64,000 nucleotides of DNA from an uncultured Gammaproteobacteria bacterium (GTDB lineage: Bacteria; Patescibacteriota; Patescibacteriia; Patescibacteriales; UBA12075). Positions within the stretch are counted from its first letter, which is position 1, and every line of letters starts with the position of its first letter. The translations under genes and the position numbers were made by a program. Location of the stretch: the NCBI GenBank assembly GCA_964459725.1, contig CAYWNT010000001.1, forward strand, positions 91,529-155,528, given 5' to 3'. Under the pieces are notes generated by a model. The model ran no database searches and was not told the DNA's origin. It was given only the letters and a program-made list of their open reading frames with translations. Of the stretch, positions 8,401 through 44,405 are shown piece by piece.

Positions 8401-11400
8401 GTAAACTTCGGTGGAGCCAAGGTGAATAGCACGGTTTTATATACTTACATGTATTACACCCCTCAGATGGTAAAGATAATGAGTCAGGACCAGAGAAAAG
8501 CTGATGATACAACCAGTATTCCAAATAACACCTGGACAGATGAGTCTGAGGTGAATCTTCATGCCAGCGCCTTGGACGTAAATGGTGGAACTAGTACGGA
8601 CTTTTATTTTGAGCTTATTGGAGCAGGTGACCCTTTCACCTCTACAACTACTGAGCCGGCTTCTGCTTGTGCTGACGGTACTGGGTATGCGGCTTGTTCT
8701 GAAAAGATTTGGACAAAAAATATTACAAAAACAGGTCAAGCTTCTTGGTATGACTCTAATTGGTCATATCGCTTACCGATCACCATAAATGCCTCAGAAG
8801 TAGTATCACATGAGTCAAATTTCCCAGTCCTGGCTACAGGTACGATTTCTGCATTGGCTTACACCGGGTCAGGGGGTAAGGTAGCTAGCTCTAGTGGGGC
8901 AGATATTGTGATTACTGATTCAAGCGGGACTACAACCTTAGGTTATGAGAGAGCGCTGTATGATAGTGCCACCGGTGAGTTTAGATTTTGGGTAAATGCT
9001 GATATATCTTCCACTACAGATACGGTTTTATATTTATATTATGGAAATTCAAATATTTCAGAAGACATGGCCTCAACGACTCTTGCTTGGAATTCAGGCT
9101 ATGACCTGGTTTATCACTTGGAAGAAGCTCCAGCGCCAGATGGTATTCACTATGATTCTACTGCTAACTCCTATGATGCTAATTTTAGAGATGCTAATAG
9201 TAATTCTGATACTAATGTGTCAGGTGTTATTGGAGGAGCAGATCTATTTAATGGAGATGCTGACTACTTGGCAATTCAGGATATGACTTATACCGCAGCG
9301 GGCATACCTGAGGTAACGGTTGAAACTTGGATCAATACAACCGATGGAGCTGATCAGATGATCGCTTCTTTTGATAGAAATCAATTTTGGAGACTGGAAG
9401 TAAACGGTACAGCCGGAGGTATTGGAGAAATTGGATGGGGCATCATGACTAGTGGTGGTCAGCTTGATTTCAATAGTAACACCAGGGTGGATGATGGATT
9501 ATGGCATCATGTAGCAGCCACTTATGACAATGGCTCTGTAGCAGTTTATATTGATGGTCAATCTGTAAATACCACTTCTATAGGAGCTACTTATGGTACG
9601 GCTGCTACTCGATATGGATACTTCGGTGTTGGTTCAGAGTCAGCTACCTTTGACAGTACAAAGGGGCCAACTAGTTATGTTGATGGCTATTTGGACGAGC
9701 TTCGTATTTCAAATGTTTCCAGAAGCTCAGGCTGGATAGCAACACAGTACAAGAATCACACCGATGTTGACTCTTTGATGAGCTTTGGCAGTGAAGAAAC
9801 TGAGTATTTTGACGGTTCAGTAAATATCACATCCATCCCAGATTCAGCAACAGGTTATAAATGGCAGATTAAGGCATGTAATGATAGTGGTGATTGTAGT
9901 ATTTGGGACGACTTCAATGCTGCTCCAAATTTTATGGTAGATGCTACCGCACCTACTGCGCCTGGTAATTTAACCGACGGAGGAAAAACTTTTAGAACAA
10001 TTACTGTGAACTTTGGTGGTCAAACTACAGAGACAAATTTTGCAGAGTACAAGATATTTTATGCAACCAGCTCAAATGTAACAGAAGCTGATAGTGAGCA
10101 TGATGATGGAGACCTAGATTTTCAAAATTATAACACTACAAGTGACACAACCATAACTGATCTCCAGCCAGATACTGATTATTGGATAAATATTTGGGCC
10201 TATGACCTGGCTGGTAAGAAAGCAAGTGCTACCCCTGTTCAAATTACAACCAATGCTTCACCTCGAGCAAAAACTGTTATGTTCCCAGCCGGTATTTATA
10301 CAGGTGATGGCACAACAGGACAAAATACAGATACAGACTATTCATTTACTTCATTTGATTTCAGCTTAGCTGAGGCAGGAGTAAGTATTGAAAACGCTTA
10401 TGTTGTATTAGAAGCTCAGTTTGAGGCCTATACTGATAATGCAGGGAATTATGATGGTTACACTATTTACTTTGATACCGATTCAAGTAGTGCTGATGCC
10501 ATAAACAATGGAGTTCAAGTTAGTGATACTAACATACTTGCTTATAATGAAACTGAAAGTAATCAGGTTAGAATTTTAGCTGACGTAACAAGCGAGGCTC
10601 AACTTGCAGCTTATTCGGGAGGAAGTGAACTAAAAGCCCAAGTTGCTTACAATCTAAGCAAGGGCGGAGCAACTGAAAATTCAATTGCCAGCGCCAAGGC
10701 GAAATTGGTTGTTACTTATACCTATGACGTAACATCAGAGTCTGTGACCAATACGGTCGTCTATCCTTTGGAGTCTACTGCTTCAGGAGATCAAGGAACC
10801 AGAGCTAATGTACAGAGTGATGATTGTACCAAAGATTCTGATTGTCCAACATTTGATTACAATATGGATATCGTGGAATATTCAGCTTCTCCAAACTCTG
10901 AGAGACTAGCATCCTGGTTTGAGACTTTCAATCAGAGTGATAATAATAGGGCTAATGATGTTAGTGTGGATGTAAATATTGAAAGTGCCGGAGATGAGTT
11001 TGATAGTTATACATTTATCCACGAAGGAGCCTTGGATGATCAGGTGTCTCTACCTAATATTTATTTCAGCTCACTGGATAATTATGTAGAGAATACAGAT
11101 CAGACTCTAGAGTATTACGCCACTTCTCCTGGAAGCGCTTTTTATTACTTAGTTGGTGGAGAAGTATTTGAAACCTATACAGCTTCAAGTTCTGCTAGTA
11201 CGAAGACAAGAACAGTTCGACTTCCATTGGGAGTAATAAACAACGGACTCACCACAGCCACAACAAGTGGAGAGATTGATGTTTATTTCCCAGAAAACGG
11301 ATCGGCCACAGGCACGGTCGAGATTAAGAAAGCATGGTTTAGAGTGATATCAAATAACTATGCAAGTGCTGCTAATAATATTTCAATTTCGACCAAAATG

Positions 11401-33154: not shown

Positions 33155-33193
33155 AAATTTAAGACTGAGACGCAAGCCAATGAAAAAATAATT

Positions 33194-33229
33194 ATCTACG
33201 TAGATGTCTACGTAGACATCTACGTAGAC
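33194..33229. promoter_or_regulatory. Three abutting 12-bp palindromes (NTCTACGTAGAN x3); candidate operator array upstream of argS
   Basis: atctacgtagat / gtctacgtagac / atctacgtagac. Each contains the perfect palindrome tctacgtaga. The array lies ~30 nt upstream of a candidate promoter (TTGAAA 33260-33265, TAGAAT 33282-33287). Confidence 0.5.
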
Positions 33230-33316
33230 AGATACTAATAAAATGTATAAATTTACTCCTTGAAAAATATGAAAAGTATGTTAGAATTAGGAAACAATAG
33301 TAAAAAAGTTGAATAA

Positions 33317-35771: not shown

Positions 35772-35809
35772 AATCAATATAAAATTATTAGGTTCATTTG
35801 AAATAAAGG

Positions 35810-35837
35810 CTAAGCAGAGATATTGCTTAGTCTTTTT
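35810..35837 (+). terminator. Rho-independent terminator
   Basis: ctaagca (35810-35816) pairs with tgcttag (35824-35830), followed by tcttttt. Confidence 0.6.
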
Positions 35838-35839
35838 AT

Positions 35840-35867
35840 TTGACTATTTTTATTATCAATGTATAAT
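35840..35867 (+). promoter_or_regulatory. Sigma70-type promoter of the glyQS leader
   Basis: TTGACT at 35840-35845, a 16-nt spacer, and TATAAT at 35862-35867 with TG immediately upstream. Confidence 0.6.
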
Positions 35868-35874
35868 TATATTC

Positions 35875-36019
35875 ATAAGGGAGATTGGCACCCCTTTAGA
35901 AAATAGAATATATTGAGGTGCCCCGACGCAAGGTCGGGGAAACTAGATGGAACCGCGGGAAAAAAATCTCGTTCTAGTAATTTAGGAACATTTTTTAAAT
36001 TGCTTGAACGAGTTTTTTT
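35875..36019 (+). promoter_or_regulatory. T-box riboswitch leader (glycine-specific by context) with terminator/antiterminator
   Basis: Stem III pairs ccccgac with gtcgggg (35921-35939). The antiterminator has actaga (35942-47) paired with tctagt (35973-78), a 7-nt bulge UGGAACC (35948-54), and cggga paired with tctcg. The competing terminator pairs ctcgttc (35968-74) with gaacgag (36006-12) and has T7 at 36013-19. A GGC-A sits in the loop of a small hairpin (aaggg/ccctt, 35877-35896). glyQS lies downstream. Confidence 0.75.
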
Positions 36020-36037: not shown

Positions 36038-36060
36038 ATAATAATAATAATAATAATAAT
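36038..36060. repeat. (ATA)n microsatellite, ~7.7 units
   Basis: ataataataataataataataat lies between the T-box terminator and the glyQS start. Confidence 0.9.
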
Positions 36061-36076
36061 TTAGGTAATCAAAAAT

Positions 36077-39504: not shown

Positions 39505-39529
39505 TATTTGTGGATAAATACTAAAAAAA

Positions 39530-39560
39530 CTGCTGGAAGCAAAATTTCCAGCAGTTTTTT
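39530..39560. terminator. Strong terminator after ndk
   Basis: An A7 run precedes ctgctggaa (39530-38) paired with ttccagcag (39546-54). T6 follows. Confidence 0.8.
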
Positions 39561-39621
39561 GTTTATTTTTAGCATTTTTTTTATGTATTGACTTATTGTA
39601 TGAACGTGTTAAAAATAAGAT

Positions 39622-39702
39622 ATGGAAAGAATCATTCAAACAATTTTAACAACAATTAAGTCTGTCCTGCTGGCAGGCGTTATTGTGTTGAAAAAAGTTT
39701 GA
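39622..39702 (+). CDS. Leaderless 26-aa hydrophobic micro-ORF (candidate leader peptide L1): MERIIQTILTTIKSVLLAGVIVLKKV
   Basis: The ATG lies 6 nt after a candidate -10 (aaaaat 39611-16). The -35 is TTGACT at 39588-93 with a 17-nt spacer. The stop codon lies inside the first arm of the downstream alternative hairpins. The ORF is below the 60-aa cutoff of the track. Confidence 0.4.
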   Translation: MERIIQTILTTIKSVLLAGVIVLKKV

Positions 39703-39770
39703 GTGGTTTAAGATGAAATAAACAAAAAGTTTAGATAAAGACCACTCAAACTAATTGAGCGGTCTTTTTT
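39697..39770 (+). promoter_or_regulatory. Antiterminator/terminator switch downstream of L1
   Basis: Seg1 is gtttgagtggt (39697-707, containing the L1 stop). Seg2 is (g)accactcaa(ac) (39740-51). Seg3 is ttgagcggtc (39755-64) followed by T6 (39765-70). Pairings 1:2 and 2:3 are mutually exclusive. Confidence 0.55.
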
Positions 39771-39795
39771 AACACAATCAATCTGGGAGGTGGTT

Positions 39796-40011
39796 ATGGC
39801 GAGTGGGCGATCAAATCATTTGGGCAAGGAAGTAAAGGGCAGAAAGCCTGTGAAAATTTCCTTTGGAATAGATAGTGCATTTCCGGTGAATTATCTTGAT
39901 GGTTATGAGTGTGCAAATAGTAATTGCAGATCAGAGGCTGTGGTAAGAGGTGAACGAAACGTTTTTTGCAACATCTGTGGGTCAACAAAAGTAGGAGAGA
40001 GGAGTGTGTAA
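39796..40011 (+). CDS. Small zinc-ribbon protein (71 aa)
   Basis: The GGGAGG RBS lies 5 nt before ATG 39796 (the track starts at GTG 39790). It contains CANSNC...CNIC Cys pairs. Confidence 0.6.
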   Translation: MASGRSNHLGKEVKGRKPVKISFGIDSAFPVNYLDGYECANSNCRSEAVVRGERNVFCNICGSTKVGERSV

Positions 40012-40217
40012 TGGAAAAGGGAGAGTCTGGGGTAAAGCTTTATGTTGAGGTTGGTTCTTTGGAGTTTGGAGGATCACAGGAAGAGAAAGTCCGCAGTTTT
40101 TCAGAACAAGCTAAAATAGGCCGAGATAAACGGGGGATGATTAATAAGCCAGGGTATAAACCAATTGAGACCAGAGGACCGGTTTCTAGACAGAGCGTAG
40201 AGAAAATTGATTGTTGA
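40011..40217 (+). CDS. Small hypothetical protein (68 aa), translationally coupled
   Basis: The ATG at 40011 overlaps the upstream stop (TAATG). The track ORF 39966-40217 is in the same frame. The protein begins MEKGESGVKLYVEVGSLEFGG. Confidence 0.5.
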   Translation: MEKGESGVKLYVEVGSLEFGGSQEEKVRSFSEQAKIGRDKRGMINKPGYKPIETRGPVSRQSVEKIDC

Positions 40218-40455
40218 AGTTGATCTTTTATTGATCTGTAAAATGAGCAAGAGGAAAACAGCCTCAGTGATAGCTTCTAAACTTCACCCATGAGTTTAGA
40301 AACAACTAGCACACTCATTTTAGAAATCTGAAACTTCTAAGTGAAAAACATTCATTTAAGAGGTAGCAATCGGGAGAAATAGTGATCCTATTTCTCCCTC
40401 CAATTCAATTATTATTTATTAATATAATATTATTCGTAGTTACAGATTATATTTT

Positions 40456-40533
40456 ATGTATTTTCAAGAGATATTAAATATTAGAATTATTTTGAGCCTC
40501 ATTATTCTGAGTGCGCTTTTTAATACCTCTTGA
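40456..40533 (+). CDS. 25-aa Ile/Leu-rich micro-ORF (candidate leader peptide L4): MYFQEILNIRIILSLIILSALFNTS
   Basis: No Shine-Dalgarno. TATAAT at 40423-28 and gattat at 40445-50 lie upstream. The stop codon TGA (40531-33) overlaps seg1 of the downstream switch. Confidence 0.35.
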   Translation: MYFQEILNIRIILSLIILSALFNTS

Positions 40534-40589
40534 AGACGAAAATAATTTAATTAGAAGTAGGTCGTCTTTCAAGGGAAGACGATTTTTTT
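40532..40589 (+). promoter_or_regulatory. Antiterminator/terminator switch downstream of L4
   Basis: Seg1 is gaagacga (40532-39). Seg2 is tcgtctt (40562-68). Seg3 is aagacga (40576-82) followed by T7. Seg1 and seg3 have the same sequence and compete for seg2. Confidence 0.55.
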
Positions 40590-40648
40590 AGTTAAAAAGT
40601 GGCGTGTTGTTCTTTGTAAGCATCTGCCAAACAAAGGGGGTATGAGTT

Positions 40649-40945
40649 ATGTATGATGATGAAAGCGGAAGCATTGGCGAAGATGCGGCGATCACCGAGA
40701 ATCAGATGAGGAAATCATTAGGATTAGGTGAGCCTAAAATCAAAGTACTAGAAATTTTTATGTCAGAGGAGGAGCTGAGGAATAAGTTGCCGGTTGGAAA
40801 GGTGGCTGTAGCGGGAAAAAGAAAAGGGCTATTGCATCTTCATAGTGACAGACCCCTTGATCCCAGTGAAGAAGATGTAAAATTTCATTTATCTGGAGCA
40901 AAAATGATTTTTGGTGAAAAAAATGTGGTTTTAGTAGAGAGCTAA
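40649..40945 (+). CDS. Hypothetical 98-aa protein
   Basis: ORF track entry. The GGGGG RBS lies 6-7 nt upstream of the ATG. I recognise no family. Confidence 0.55.
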   Translation: MYDDESGSIGEDAAITENQMRKSLGLGEPKIKVLEIFMSEEELRNKLPVGKVAVAGKRKGLLHLHSDRPLDPSEEDVKFHLSGAKMIFGEKNVVLVES

Positions 40946-40997: not shown

Positions 40998-41025
40998 TTG
41001 ACTTTTATAAAAACTTTGATAATAT
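40998..41025 (+). promoter_or_regulatory. Sigma70-type promoter with extended -10
   Basis: TTGACT at 40998-41003, a 16-nt spacer, then TGaTAATAT at 41017-25. Confidence 0.55.
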
Positions 41026-41031
41026 ATTCAC

Positions 41032-41106
41032 ATGAAAAAAGTTTATGTAAAAAACTTATTATTAGGTTTATTGCTGCTTTTTACGAGCGGTCTTGTTTTT
41101 GTTTGA
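41032..41106 (+). CDS. Leaderless 24-aa Leu-rich micro-ORF (candidate leucine leader peptide L2): MKKVYVKNLLLGLLLLFTSGLVFV
   Basis: The ATG lies 7 nt after the -10. Eight of 24 codons are Leu, with runs tta tta tta and tta ttg ctg ctt. It lies upstream of a terminator and a LeuA-family gene. Confidence 0.45.
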   Translation: MKKVYVKNLLLGLLLLFTSGLVFV

Positions 41107-41133
41107 AAAAGTATAACATTTCTTACAAAAAAT

Positions 41134-41159
41134 AAGACTGCCAGAATAGGCAGTTTTTT
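41134..41159 (+). terminator. Attenuator terminator between L2 and the LeuA-like gene
   Basis: actgcc (41137-42) pairs with ggcagt (41149-54), followed by a T-run to 41159. The upstream gcggtctt (41086-93, inside L2) can pair with aagactgc (41134-41) as an antiterminator. Confidence 0.5.
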
Positions 41160-41205
41160 AATTGTTCTTTAAATCTATAATTCAACCAGCATAAAGGGGG
41201 AAGTA

Positions 41206-42900: not shown

Positions 42901-42929
42901 TTGAATATTTTTTTCAATTATGCTATATT
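42901..42929 (+). promoter_or_regulatory. Sigma70-type promoter
   Basis: TTGAAT at 42901-06, a 17-nt spacer, then TATATT at 42924-29. Confidence 0.5.
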
Positions 42930-42937
42930 AGTTTTAT

Positions 42938-43030
42938 ATGATTAAGACATTACAAAAAACTTATTTCTATTTTTGGTTCTTCTTCTTCCGAAGTCGGAGA
43001 TTAGTTTTTTGTGGTGTTTTAACTGATTAA
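42938..43030 (+). CDS. Near-leaderless 30-aa aromatic-rich micro-ORF (candidate leader peptide L3): MIKTLQKTYFYFWFFFFRSRRLVFCGVLTD
   Basis: The ATG lies 9 nt after the -10. Nine consecutive aromatic codons (tat ttc tat ttt tgg ttc ttc ttc ttc) are followed by a terminator. Confidence 0.4.
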   Translation: MIKTLQKTYFYFWFFFFRSRRLVFCGVLTD

Positions 43031-43055
43031 GTTTGCACCATTAGGGAAAACAAAA

Positions 43056-43090
43056 CTGGTCTCCATTACGGAGGCCAGTTTTATTTTTAT
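43056..43090 (+). terminator. Terminator downstream of L3
   Basis: ctggtctcc (43056-64) pairs with ggaggccag (43070-78) with one G-U pair, followed by ttttatttttat. The upstream ggaga (42996-43000, inside L3) can pair with tctcc, but this alternative is weak. Confidence 0.6.
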
Positions 43091-43528: not shown

Positions 43529-43929
43529 ATGGTTAATCAAAGACGATGGCCTTATTTAATTTTATATTAATATTTGACTAATACAATGCTAACATGGGTG
43601 TGGTTTAATAAAGGTGAAGATAAAAAGAGGGCACAAGAAATTGGGGATAAAAACAATTTTTTTGAGTACAAACCGAAAAAAAGAAAATCTCAAAAGCACT
43701 TGACAAAAAGAAATATTTAAGGTATGATAAACGATTCTAGCTCATTTTACCTTAAATAAGTTAATAGACTGTTAAAAAGTCTGTGCAAAACCCTGTGTAA
43801 AAAAATGGCAAAAATTGTTTAAAACTAGCCCAAAAACACCCTTGCAAAAAAATAAATTTTAGCTATAATATACACACAAACAAAAAACTAAAACACATAC
43901 ACACATTTTTCTTCCTGGAGGGGATGGAC

Positions 43930-43995
43930 ATGAAAGACAAAGCAAGACGGATGATTTACATCATGGACGTGGTTGCAGAAGAAGAAGGAAGATAA
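43930..43995 (+). CDS. Possible 21-aa micro-ORF (MKDKARRMIYIMDVVAEEEGR)
   Basis: The GGAGGGG RBS lies 6 nt upstream. It is preceded by a near-consensus promoter (cttgca..N17..tataat, ~43842-43870) and a CA-rich leader. A hairpin plus T7 follows (~44016-44058). Confidence 0.3.
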   Translation: MKDKARRMIYIMDVVAEEEGR

Positions 43996-44405
43996 AAGGC
44001 AATAATGCCAAAAAAAGTTTTTCGAGGGTTTTTAGCACAAGCTAACAGCCCTCTTTTTTTATTTAATTTTTCTATATTTTGTTAGTTAGGATAAAATATG
44101 GTAAAATTAGATTGAAATAGCTTTTTTAAGGTTTATTTCGAATTGTTCATTACAAAAACCAGAAAAAGGAGAGTCAATATATTTATCGTTAGCGGTTGAT
44201 ATTTTTTTAAATTTGCACCAGAGCAGAGTTAAAAAGGAAGAGTGAAGAGTGTAAATTTCTGAATGTGGTACAAATATGACAAACCAGATGTGATATTTCT
44301 CTAAAGAGTTATATGAGGGGTTTTATTCCAAGTGGCTTCTGATCAGGAAGCGAAGAAGTCAAGAATTTATAGTATTGTATTATAATACTAGGGGGAGGAG
44401 AGATC

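Follow-up and report, generated by a model that had tools for sequence, protein, structure and literature searches.

Known attenuators and the probable place of L1 among them

In the enterobacterial attenuators that have been modelled, a ribosome that stalls in the control codons of the leader allows segments II and III to pair, and a ribosome that reaches the stop codon prevents them from doing so (PMC1183508). The subject of this report is L1, a leader downstream of ndk in a 64-kb stretch of contig CAYWNT010000001.1 ('the window': the whole stretch of DNA that was analysed), from an uncultured member of the Patescibacteria, or candidate phyla radiation (CPR). The stretch belongs to JGI contig Ga0105000_1000094, and the names carried by its nearest LeuA-family homologues point to this phylum. 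L1 has the complete classical layout—an anti-antiterminator (1:2), an antiterminator (2:3), and a terminator followed by a U-tract (3:4)—and displays every structural feature of a ribosome-mediated transcription attenuator for which we could test. We read it as a translation-coupled (leader-peptide) terminator/antiterminator switch of the classical four-segment type, and put the probability of this reading at roughly 0.65.

Like the attenuators of trp, his, leu, thr, ilvGMEDA and pheA (PMC1183508), L1 has a short leader open reading frame (ORF), segments that can pair 1:2, 2:3 and 3:4, and, directly ahead of the first structural gene, an intrinsic terminator that would give a leader transcript of ~150 nt. 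In it, too, a ribosome at the stop codon would block 2:3, and a stall in control codons would lead to antitermination. Unlike them, L1 holds its stop codon within segment 2 itself, has no run of any single amino acid, lacks a Shine-Dalgarno (SD) sequence and apparently starts leaderless, and precedes two small proteins without family match. Nor does it resemble the enterobacterial leaders in sequence or covariance model, and nothing in Rfam is significantly similar even at E up to 10. Its mixed Ile/Leu/Val/Thr peptide does recall those of the thr and ilv leaders. What sets L1 apart is its phylum, its non-biosynthetic cargo, for which no relatives could be detected, and, if we read the start correctly, its leaderless translation.

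Leader-peptide attenuation is found outside the Proteobacteria as well. The ilvBNC and leuA attenuators of Corynebacterium and other actinobacteria have leaders rich in branched-chain residues and a three-hairpin architecture predicted by comparative genomics; compared by description only, they are like L1, with the difference that they control ilv and leu enzymes and L1 does not (PMC1262725, PMC11857589, PMC10272879). In mycobacteria, leaderless short ORFs that encode polycysteine form the first cistrons of operons and serve as amino-acid sensors, in which a stall remodels the RNA downstream; several together constitute a 'ribulon' (bioRxiv 10.1101/834739). L1 resembles these in having an unannotated, apparently leaderless short ORF as its proposed stalling sensor. 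The mycobacterial ORFs carry a Cys run and act on translation, however, whereas the terminator hairpin and U-tract of L1 indicate control of transcription (bioRxiv 10.1101/834739). Full-text searches of a library of papers returned none that joins leader-peptide attenuation with Patescibacteria or the CPR.

Elements of the leader

The elements of L1 are as follows. Three-digit L-numbers (L084, L085, L086, L087 and so on) denote loci of relatives compared with the window; L087 is the one that carries an orthologue of L1.

39524-39560: strong terminator at the end of ndk, active in both directions by prediction; stem of 16 pairs, a T-run on either strand
39588-39616, + strand: promoter-like site, TTGACT, 16/17-nt spacer, TAAAAAT preceded by TG; ATTGAC of the -35 element kept in L087
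39622-39702, + strand: leader micro-ORF of 26 codons, MERIIQTILTTIKSVLLAGVIVLKKV, with TGA stop at 39700-02; orthologue MFQAVRTILSSISLNILLGLVVVIL in L087
39629-39641, + strand: segment 1 (anti-antiterminator), GAAUCAUUCAAAC, codons 3-7 of the ORF; pairs with segment 2
39660-39678, + strand: inner G+C-rich hairpin, codons 13-19; L087 has a hairpin at these codons too, though its sequence differs
39697-39709, + strand: segment 2, GUUUGAGUGGUUU, 5' arm of the antiterminator; holds the stop codon
39738-39751, + strand: segment 3, AAGACCACUCAAAC, common to antiterminator and terminator
39755-39770, + strand: segment 4, UUGAGCGGUC, with T6 at 39765-70

The ndk terminator would insulate L1 from transcription that arrives from upstream. 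Because the -10 element ends only 5-6 nt before the ATG, the micro-ORF, which has no SD sequence, would be leaderless or nearly so. Its codons 4-12 read IIQTILTTI, and the inner hairpin that follows is possibly a pause hairpin for RNA polymerase. At the other end, the gap between the T-tract and the ATG of the first structural gene is only 25 nt, mostly SD sequence, and contains no promoter-like site, so the genes beyond it would be transcribed only through the terminator.

An earlier, sequence-only reading of this DNA had numbered our segments 2, 3 and 4 as 1, 2 and 3, and its description of them is accurate: gtttgagtggt (39697-707) contains the stop codon; accactcaaac (39741-51) is its perfect 11-nt reverse complement; and ttgagcggtc (39755-64), which shares 8 of 9 bases with the first arm and runs into the T6, pairs with gaccactcaa (39740-49) with a single A.C mismatch. 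The competing-helix switch that it proposed on these grounds is supported, too, although it overlooked segment 1, the anti-antiterminator that lies within the ORF.

Known families of leader were considered and set aside. RF00230, the T-box model, has no match in 39588-39796, and among riboswitches and the Rfam cis-regulatory families, the Thr, Leu, Phe and His leaders included, only FuFi-1 was returned, at noise level (15.5 bits, E = 9.8, 39624-39768).

Strength of the competing helices

The antiterminator helix and the terminator are mutually exclusive. Segments 1 and 2 form 13 bp that close an 81-nt hairpin over nearly the whole ORF (-32.2 kcal/mol). Segments 2 and 3 form 11 Watson-Crick (WC) pairs, or 13 with G-U pairs counted (39697-709 with 39738-751; -20.3 kcal/mol), and the terminator hairpin, 39737-39767, comes to -13.9 to -14.3 kcal/mol with its one A.C mismatch. 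The z-scores of the folds are -5.66 for the leader, -4.53 for the antiterminator and -6.51 for the terminator.

The region is A+T-rich, and in such DNA short ORFs and hairpins are common, so the layout might be nothing more than an ordinary terminator next to a fortuitous repeat. We consider this extremely improbable. When the upstream leader was shuffled with its dinucleotides preserved, an 11-bp WC run against the 5' arm of the terminator was reached in 2 of 5000 trials and the energy of the 2:3 duplex in none of 1000; the 1:2 pairing energy was reached in 2 of 2000 shuffles. Scans for the whole pattern—a terminator, an antiterminator of at least 8 WC bp, and a micro-ORF stop within that antiterminator—found L1 as the sole match on both strands of the window. 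In related DNA, 1.18 Mb with both strands counted, they picked up the L1 orthologue and, apart from it, just two sites that are probably spurious. Conservation with compensatory change in L087, described below, effectively refutes the idea of chance.

The effect of a ribosome was modelled by folding the leader with a 30-nt footprint made unpairable. With the A-site at any of codons 1-13, L1 folds into the antiterminator; from codon 14 to the stop, it folds into the terminator. This fits the claim, made from the sequence alone, that a terminating ribosome would cover the stop-codon arm and favour termination.

An orthologue and a paralogue

The orthologue came to light through the 98-aa protein encoded further downstream, which a word-index search matched only to itself. 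An exhaustive HMMER search of 1.8 billion representative proteins yielded one relative (P0123), and the locus of this relative, L087 (JGI Ga0233425_10002592), comes from another metagenome and is syntenic with the window: ArgRS, GlyRS, MBL, a response regulator and NDK are all present, the last 75% identical to its counterpart. Between ndk and a 100-aa gene, L087 has a TTGACA promoter and then the 25-codon ORF MFQAVRTILSSISLNILLGLVVVIL, homologous to the L1 peptide. Its UGA sits in TTGTGAGCGGTT, which makes 13 bp with AACCGCTTACAAT, and its terminator is perfect (AAAACCGCTTAC/GTAAGCGGTTTT, followed by T). The sequence-only reading had, in advance, staked its case on conservation of the near-duplication that we call segments 2 and 4. 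The duplication is conserved: in L087 these segments are TTGTGAGCGGTT and GTAAGCGGTT, and both have changed along with segment 3.

The changes are of the kind that preserves pairing. Pairing in the 2:3 helix is complete (100%) for both the window and L087, versus 31-46% when the partner columns are slid against each other. Between the two, both partners have changed in 7 of 13 column pairs, though part of this is due to a 1-nt slide of both arms; counted by hand in the register fixed by the UGA, three pairs in 2:3 are compensatory (G-C/U-A, U-A/G-C, U-A/C-G), as are three more in the terminator, and two positions of segment 3 co-vary with both of their partners. In the window, GUGGU in segment 2 is matched by ACCAC in segment 3 while segment 4 keeps GCGGU, hence the A.C mismatch in the terminator next to a perfect antiterminator. 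This is what would be expected if the 2:3 pairing itself were under selection.

The peptides of the window and L087 are partly conserved in sequence and both have 19-20 hydrophobic residues between charges. This raises the thought that the locus is a gene for a small hydrophobic membrane peptide or toxin, with its own terminator, whose peptide or ~150-nt RNA is the product and in which control by read-through is secondary or absent. We find this distinctly improbable, since it leaves the 2:3 helix, and the co-variation of segment 3 with both partners, unexplained. Furthermore, no separate promoter serves the cargo gene, and in the L1b peptide of L084, introduced below, charged residues (IKES, DEC) interrupt the hydrophobic stretch, so a transmembrane helix seems not to be conserved. 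The related notion of a small-RNA or type I toxin locus was considered and is not favoured; no antisense promoter or terminator is seen at L1.

A second copy of the cassette, L1b, lies between the L1 genes and the 98-aa gene (40649-40945):

40456-40592, + strand: L1b, internal attenuator with micro-ORF MYFQEILNIRIILSLIILSALFNTS, UGA in the antiterminator arm UCUUGAAGACGA, terminator at 40559-85 and T-run

Here, too, the start of the ORF pairs with its end and the UGA lies within the antiterminator arm. L1b resembles L1 in this layout and in its peptide. It is kept in L084 (391-523; peptide MNFQDLLIKESILLIIIDECLIGS), ahead of a gene of the same 98/104-aa family, and lacks a separate promoter in both genomes; it probably belongs to the same transcription unit as L1 and is reached by read-through from it. 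The sequence of L084 begins with ACCACTCTTTAGTAGGAGTGGTTTTTT, directly ahead of a 66-aa gene, and this is probably the terminator of that genome's own L1, the remainder of which is cut off by the contig end. In the window, the RNA of the intergenic region just before L1b (40218-40455) is highly structured (z = -5.35) and includes a hairpin at 40373-40399 with no U-tract after it. The loop of this hairpin, GUGAUCC, and its 3' flank, CCAAUU, are kept in L084 (~345-375), and its stem co-varies.

Four members of the family were examined, L1, its orthologue and two copies of L1b, and in all four the UGA falls within the paired 5' arm of the antiterminator. A reading frame of 24-26 codons that begins with ATG and ends exactly in segment 2 has been kept although the members have diverged strongly. 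This bears on a further explanation, in which translation plays no part, the ORF is incidental, and a protein or ligand that binds the long 1:2 hairpin decides the fold. The strength of the leader structure, the missing SD sequence, and the presence in this organism of an RNA-sensing leader, a T-box-like element upstream of GlyRS, would all suit such a switch. We think it quite unlikely, nonetheless: the ATG of the ORF and the place of its stop have been kept through this divergence, no Rfam family matches, and related cassettes contain runs of cognate amino acids.

Proposed mechanism and signal

Under the attenuator reading, transcription would start at or just before the AUG of the micro-ORF and must then pass the intrinsic terminator 25 nt upstream of the zinc-ribbon gene. 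With no ribosome on the leader, segments 1 and 2 would pair, leaving segment 3 free to form the terminator. Smooth translation would have the same outcome by another route: the ribosome, having arrived at the UGA, would cover segment 2, and the terminator would form again. If the ribosome were to stall early, instead—within codons 1-13 in the folding model, IIQTILTTI included—it would cover segment 1 and release segment 2, which would then pair with segment 3 (-20 kcal/mol, versus -14 for the terminator). RNA polymerase would read through into the two small genes and probably continue to L1b and the 98-aa gene. The sequence-only reading had supplied part of this, occlusion by a ribosome at the stop codon; why a ribosome should fail to get there, by stalling in the Ile/Leu/Val/Thr-rich codons 4-12, it did not say.

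If L1 is an attenuator, the likeliest signal, at about even odds, is that tRNAs charged with branched-chain amino acids run low: those for Ile and Leu, and perhaps Val. Composition points this way. The four L1 and L1b peptides are 35-46% Ile+Leu and the two L1 peptides 50-56% Ile+Leu+Val, values that lie in the top 0.5-4% of 1209 background micro-ORFs; the window L1 peptide, with an Ile+Leu+Val fraction of 0.50, is in the top 1.7%. A LeuA-family gene near L1 has a Leu leader of its own.

The peptide could act in a different way. In drug-inducible arrest leaders of the erm/cat type, a short hydrophobic peptide with a conserved internal motif stalls its own ribosome, which remodels competing helices much as we propose for L1; these leaders mostly unmask an SD sequence and control resistance genes, and L1 has no such cargo. 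On this model the motif (Q/R)TIL(T/S)(T/S)I would arrest the ribosome when a small molecule or translation stress is present, and segment 2 would be freed in the same way. Between the window and L087, TIL(T/S)(T/S)I and the codons ACAATTTTA..C..CAATT are kept while flanking codons drift, and the changes from T to S preserve the chemistry of the peptide rather than the identity of the codon. The lack of a single-amino-acid run and of biosynthetic cargo would fit arrest as well. Then again, the L1b peptides are without the motif and keep the RNA layout, the sister cassettes plainly rely on runs of an amino acid, and the 1:2 hairpin could equally account for conservation at the nucleotide level. 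All told, we regard nascent-peptide arrest as unlikely.

A number of observations count against the attenuator reading, or against parts of it. Cassettes of the L1/L1b type occur in only three genomes, and 77 other NDK loci are without them. The occlusion model, being thermodynamic, leaves the terminator unflipped for the L087 orthologue, for window L1b and for L3, a sister cassette; these require a kinetic argument, and we do not claim the model as general support. With no SD sequence, translation of the micro-ORF would need leaderless or non-SD initiation, and since the ATG in L087 lies 24 nt past the best -10 element, leaderless initiation is not conserved. The L1 peptide has no tandem run of one amino acid, its enrichment in Ile, Leu and Val is moderate, and L087 has Ser where the window has Thr codons. 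Its composition could also be explained by its resemblance to a transmembrane helix. The proteins encoded directly behind the leader are not biosynthetic and their sequence is not conserved between the window and L087, and no link to a cognate amino acid or pathway backs the assignment of the amino acid sensed.

A run of nhmmer with the L1 pair over 80 NDK loci found no further copies of L1, and the other contigs that carry the window proteins are 100% identical and so display no population variation.

Genes proposed to be under L1 control

Two genes follow the L1 terminator:

39785-40011, + strand: SD sequence GGGAGG and ORF (39796-40011) for a 71-aa zinc-ribbon protein, C-ANSN-C ... C-NI-C (CxxxxC...CxxC)
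40011-40217, + strand: 68-aa protein, translationally coupled by a TAATG overlap, predicted to be mostly disordered

Both ORFs have strong SD sequences and are also called by independent gene callers, and the overlapping pair that the sequence-only reading described is indeed there. Beyond this, the proteins give little away. A homology search of 5.8 billion proteins with the zinc ribbon returned only itself; the 68-aa protein, predicted to be mostly coil, has no family match, and no direct homologue search was made with it. Pfam, NCBIfam and PADLOC have no match for either one or for the 98-aa protein. AlphaFold models of the pair are of low confidence (pLDDT 62 and 58), and Foldseek matched the zinc-ribbon model to generic zinc ribbons only in the PDB (E > 2).

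At the same position in L087, behind a strong SD sequence, is a gene for a 69-aa Cys-rich protein that has no BLAST similarity to the window protein; it resembles, instead, a 66-aa protein of L095 whose gene stands two genes before a canonical leuA. What the unit has kept as cargo is the 98/100/104-aa family, which in the window stands behind L1b. If the switch works as proposed, a shortage of branched-chain amino acids would induce the small proteins, and L1 offers a handle on their function. It would also offer, from an uncultured phylum, a compact RNA switch that lends itself to testing.

Sister cassettes in the window and in relatives

L1 and L1b are accompanied by two more cassettes, L2 and L3. 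Like L1, the sister cassettes have micro-ORFs without SD sequences, a hairpin that spans the ORF, and a terminator just before SD-led genes, and except for L1b, with no promoter of its own, they share L1's promoter type. L2 and L3 are unlike L1 in having clear Leu and aromatic runs with cognate cargo (prephenate dehydratase and TyrA in relatives, in the case of L3); L1 has neither.

The micro-ORF of L2 (41032-41106; cassette 41032-41163, region 40998-41163) is MKKVYVKNLLLGLLLLFTSGLVFV, with the Leu run LLLGLLLL, ahead of the LeuA-family gene. Leaders with the same core (LLSLLLL), MKQANFTKQLLSLLLLEPSGQAACFYMNKL and MKQVNFTKNLLSLLLLEPSRRAACFYMNKKK, precede orthologous LeuA-family genes in L085 (5400-5600) and L086 (160-350), each with a TTGACT promoter before it and a terminator after it. 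The Leu-run leader is thus kept in two distant relatives, and it is absent from the closest one, L084. The LeuA-family genes behind it form a clade specific to Patescibacteria. Scans of genome contigs with LeuA gave nothing when a single protein was the query and, with an alignment from which generic LeuA motifs were chosen, only canonical leuA genes of other phyla.

L3 (micro-ORF 42938-43030; cassette 42938-43090, region 42901-43090) encodes MIKTLQKTYFYFWFFFFRSRRLVFCGVLTD, with the aromatic run FYFWFFFF. Its counterpart in L084, MIKNIQKTFTSFWFYFYGFSPKG (2720-2900), precedes a 102-aa gene and prephenate dehydratase, and that in L087, MIKTLQKTYFYFWFYFGLRRSVFCGVLTA (10587-10730), precedes genes for prephenate dehydratase, prephenate dehydrogenase/chorismate mutase and an aminotransferase. 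In the window nothing but a pair of ORFs without matches, 58 and 56 aa long, follows L3; its cargo has apparently been replaced there.

Runs of amino acids that match the pathway downstream are a hallmark of leader-peptide attenuation, and ribosome-mediated attenuation thus appears to operate in this lineage. Of ten cassettes, six have 5-9 nt between the -10 element and the ATG and none has an SD sequence, which suggests leaderless translation; the two cassettes of L087 have leaders of 24-27 nt.

A different family of Ile/Leu/Val-rich micro-ORFs without SD sequences, for example MNNFSTKFAIVLLDLNILLVGGKFSLGNIA, directly follows ndk in five relatives:

L097, 5804-5896: ndk-linked I/L/V micro-ORF
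L098, 5696-5788: ndk-linked I/L/V micro-ORF
L099, 3778-3870: ndk-linked I/L/V micro-ORF
L108, 5692-5775: ndk-linked I/L/V micro-ORF
L125, 1953-2057: ndk-linked I/L/V micro-ORF

These follow the same three-segment logic (2:3 helix 94.5% paired), with a terminator 23-30 nt past the stop codon and then small SD-led proteins that have no obvious relatives. Their N-termini resemble those of L2 and L3 (MKQxNFTK, MIKxxQKT). Within the L2 leader, 41083-41098 holds GAGCGGTCTTGTTTTT, nearly identical to the 3' arm of the L1 terminator, GAGCGGTCTTTTTT (39757-39770). This likeness hints that the cassettes arose by duplication of modules.

The usual picture of Patescibacteria is one of minimal metabolism and little regulation. 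Four attenuators (L1, L1b, L2 and L3) within ~3.5 kb argue that ribosome-coupled control of transcription exists in this lineage, and with it tight coupling of transcription to translation and, probably, leaderless initiation. The switches would serve small proteins without detectable relatives, besides rare biosynthetic genes (the LeuA family; pheA/tyrA in relatives). One can imagine, and we put it forward as speculation more doubtful than not, that this lineage has diversified its leaderless attenuators—Leu-run, aromatic-run and mixed Ile/Leu/Val—into general sensors of the amino acids of host or environment, which also switch on fast-evolving small proteins next to ndk, often zinc ribbons. 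Such organisms, thought to have almost no metabolic regulation, would then possess a starvation-induced programme of small proteins, and their terminated leader RNAs of ~150 nt, if abundant, might also act in trans.

Other observations in the window

Upstream of the GlyRS gene (36077), a divergent T-box-like leader occupies 35803-35979 (RF00230, 41.7 bits, E = 1.3e-6, well below the gathering score of 93), followed by a run of (ATA)n at ~36040-36062. The same genome thus seems to employ both T-box and leader-peptide sensing.

A single ORF of 8,899 codons spans 2413-29112. Upstream of ArgRS, the intergenic region includes a 38-nt near-perfect palindrome (33193-33230) of TACGTAGA-type units. Finally, 43842-44050, upstream of a 395-aa gene, holds a promoter-like site (TTGCAA-16-TATAAT), then an SD-led ORF of 23 codons, MDMKDKARRMIYIMDVVAEEEGR (43924-43995), and a hairpin followed by Ts. 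This is possibly a further regulatory cassette, unlike the others in being SD-led.

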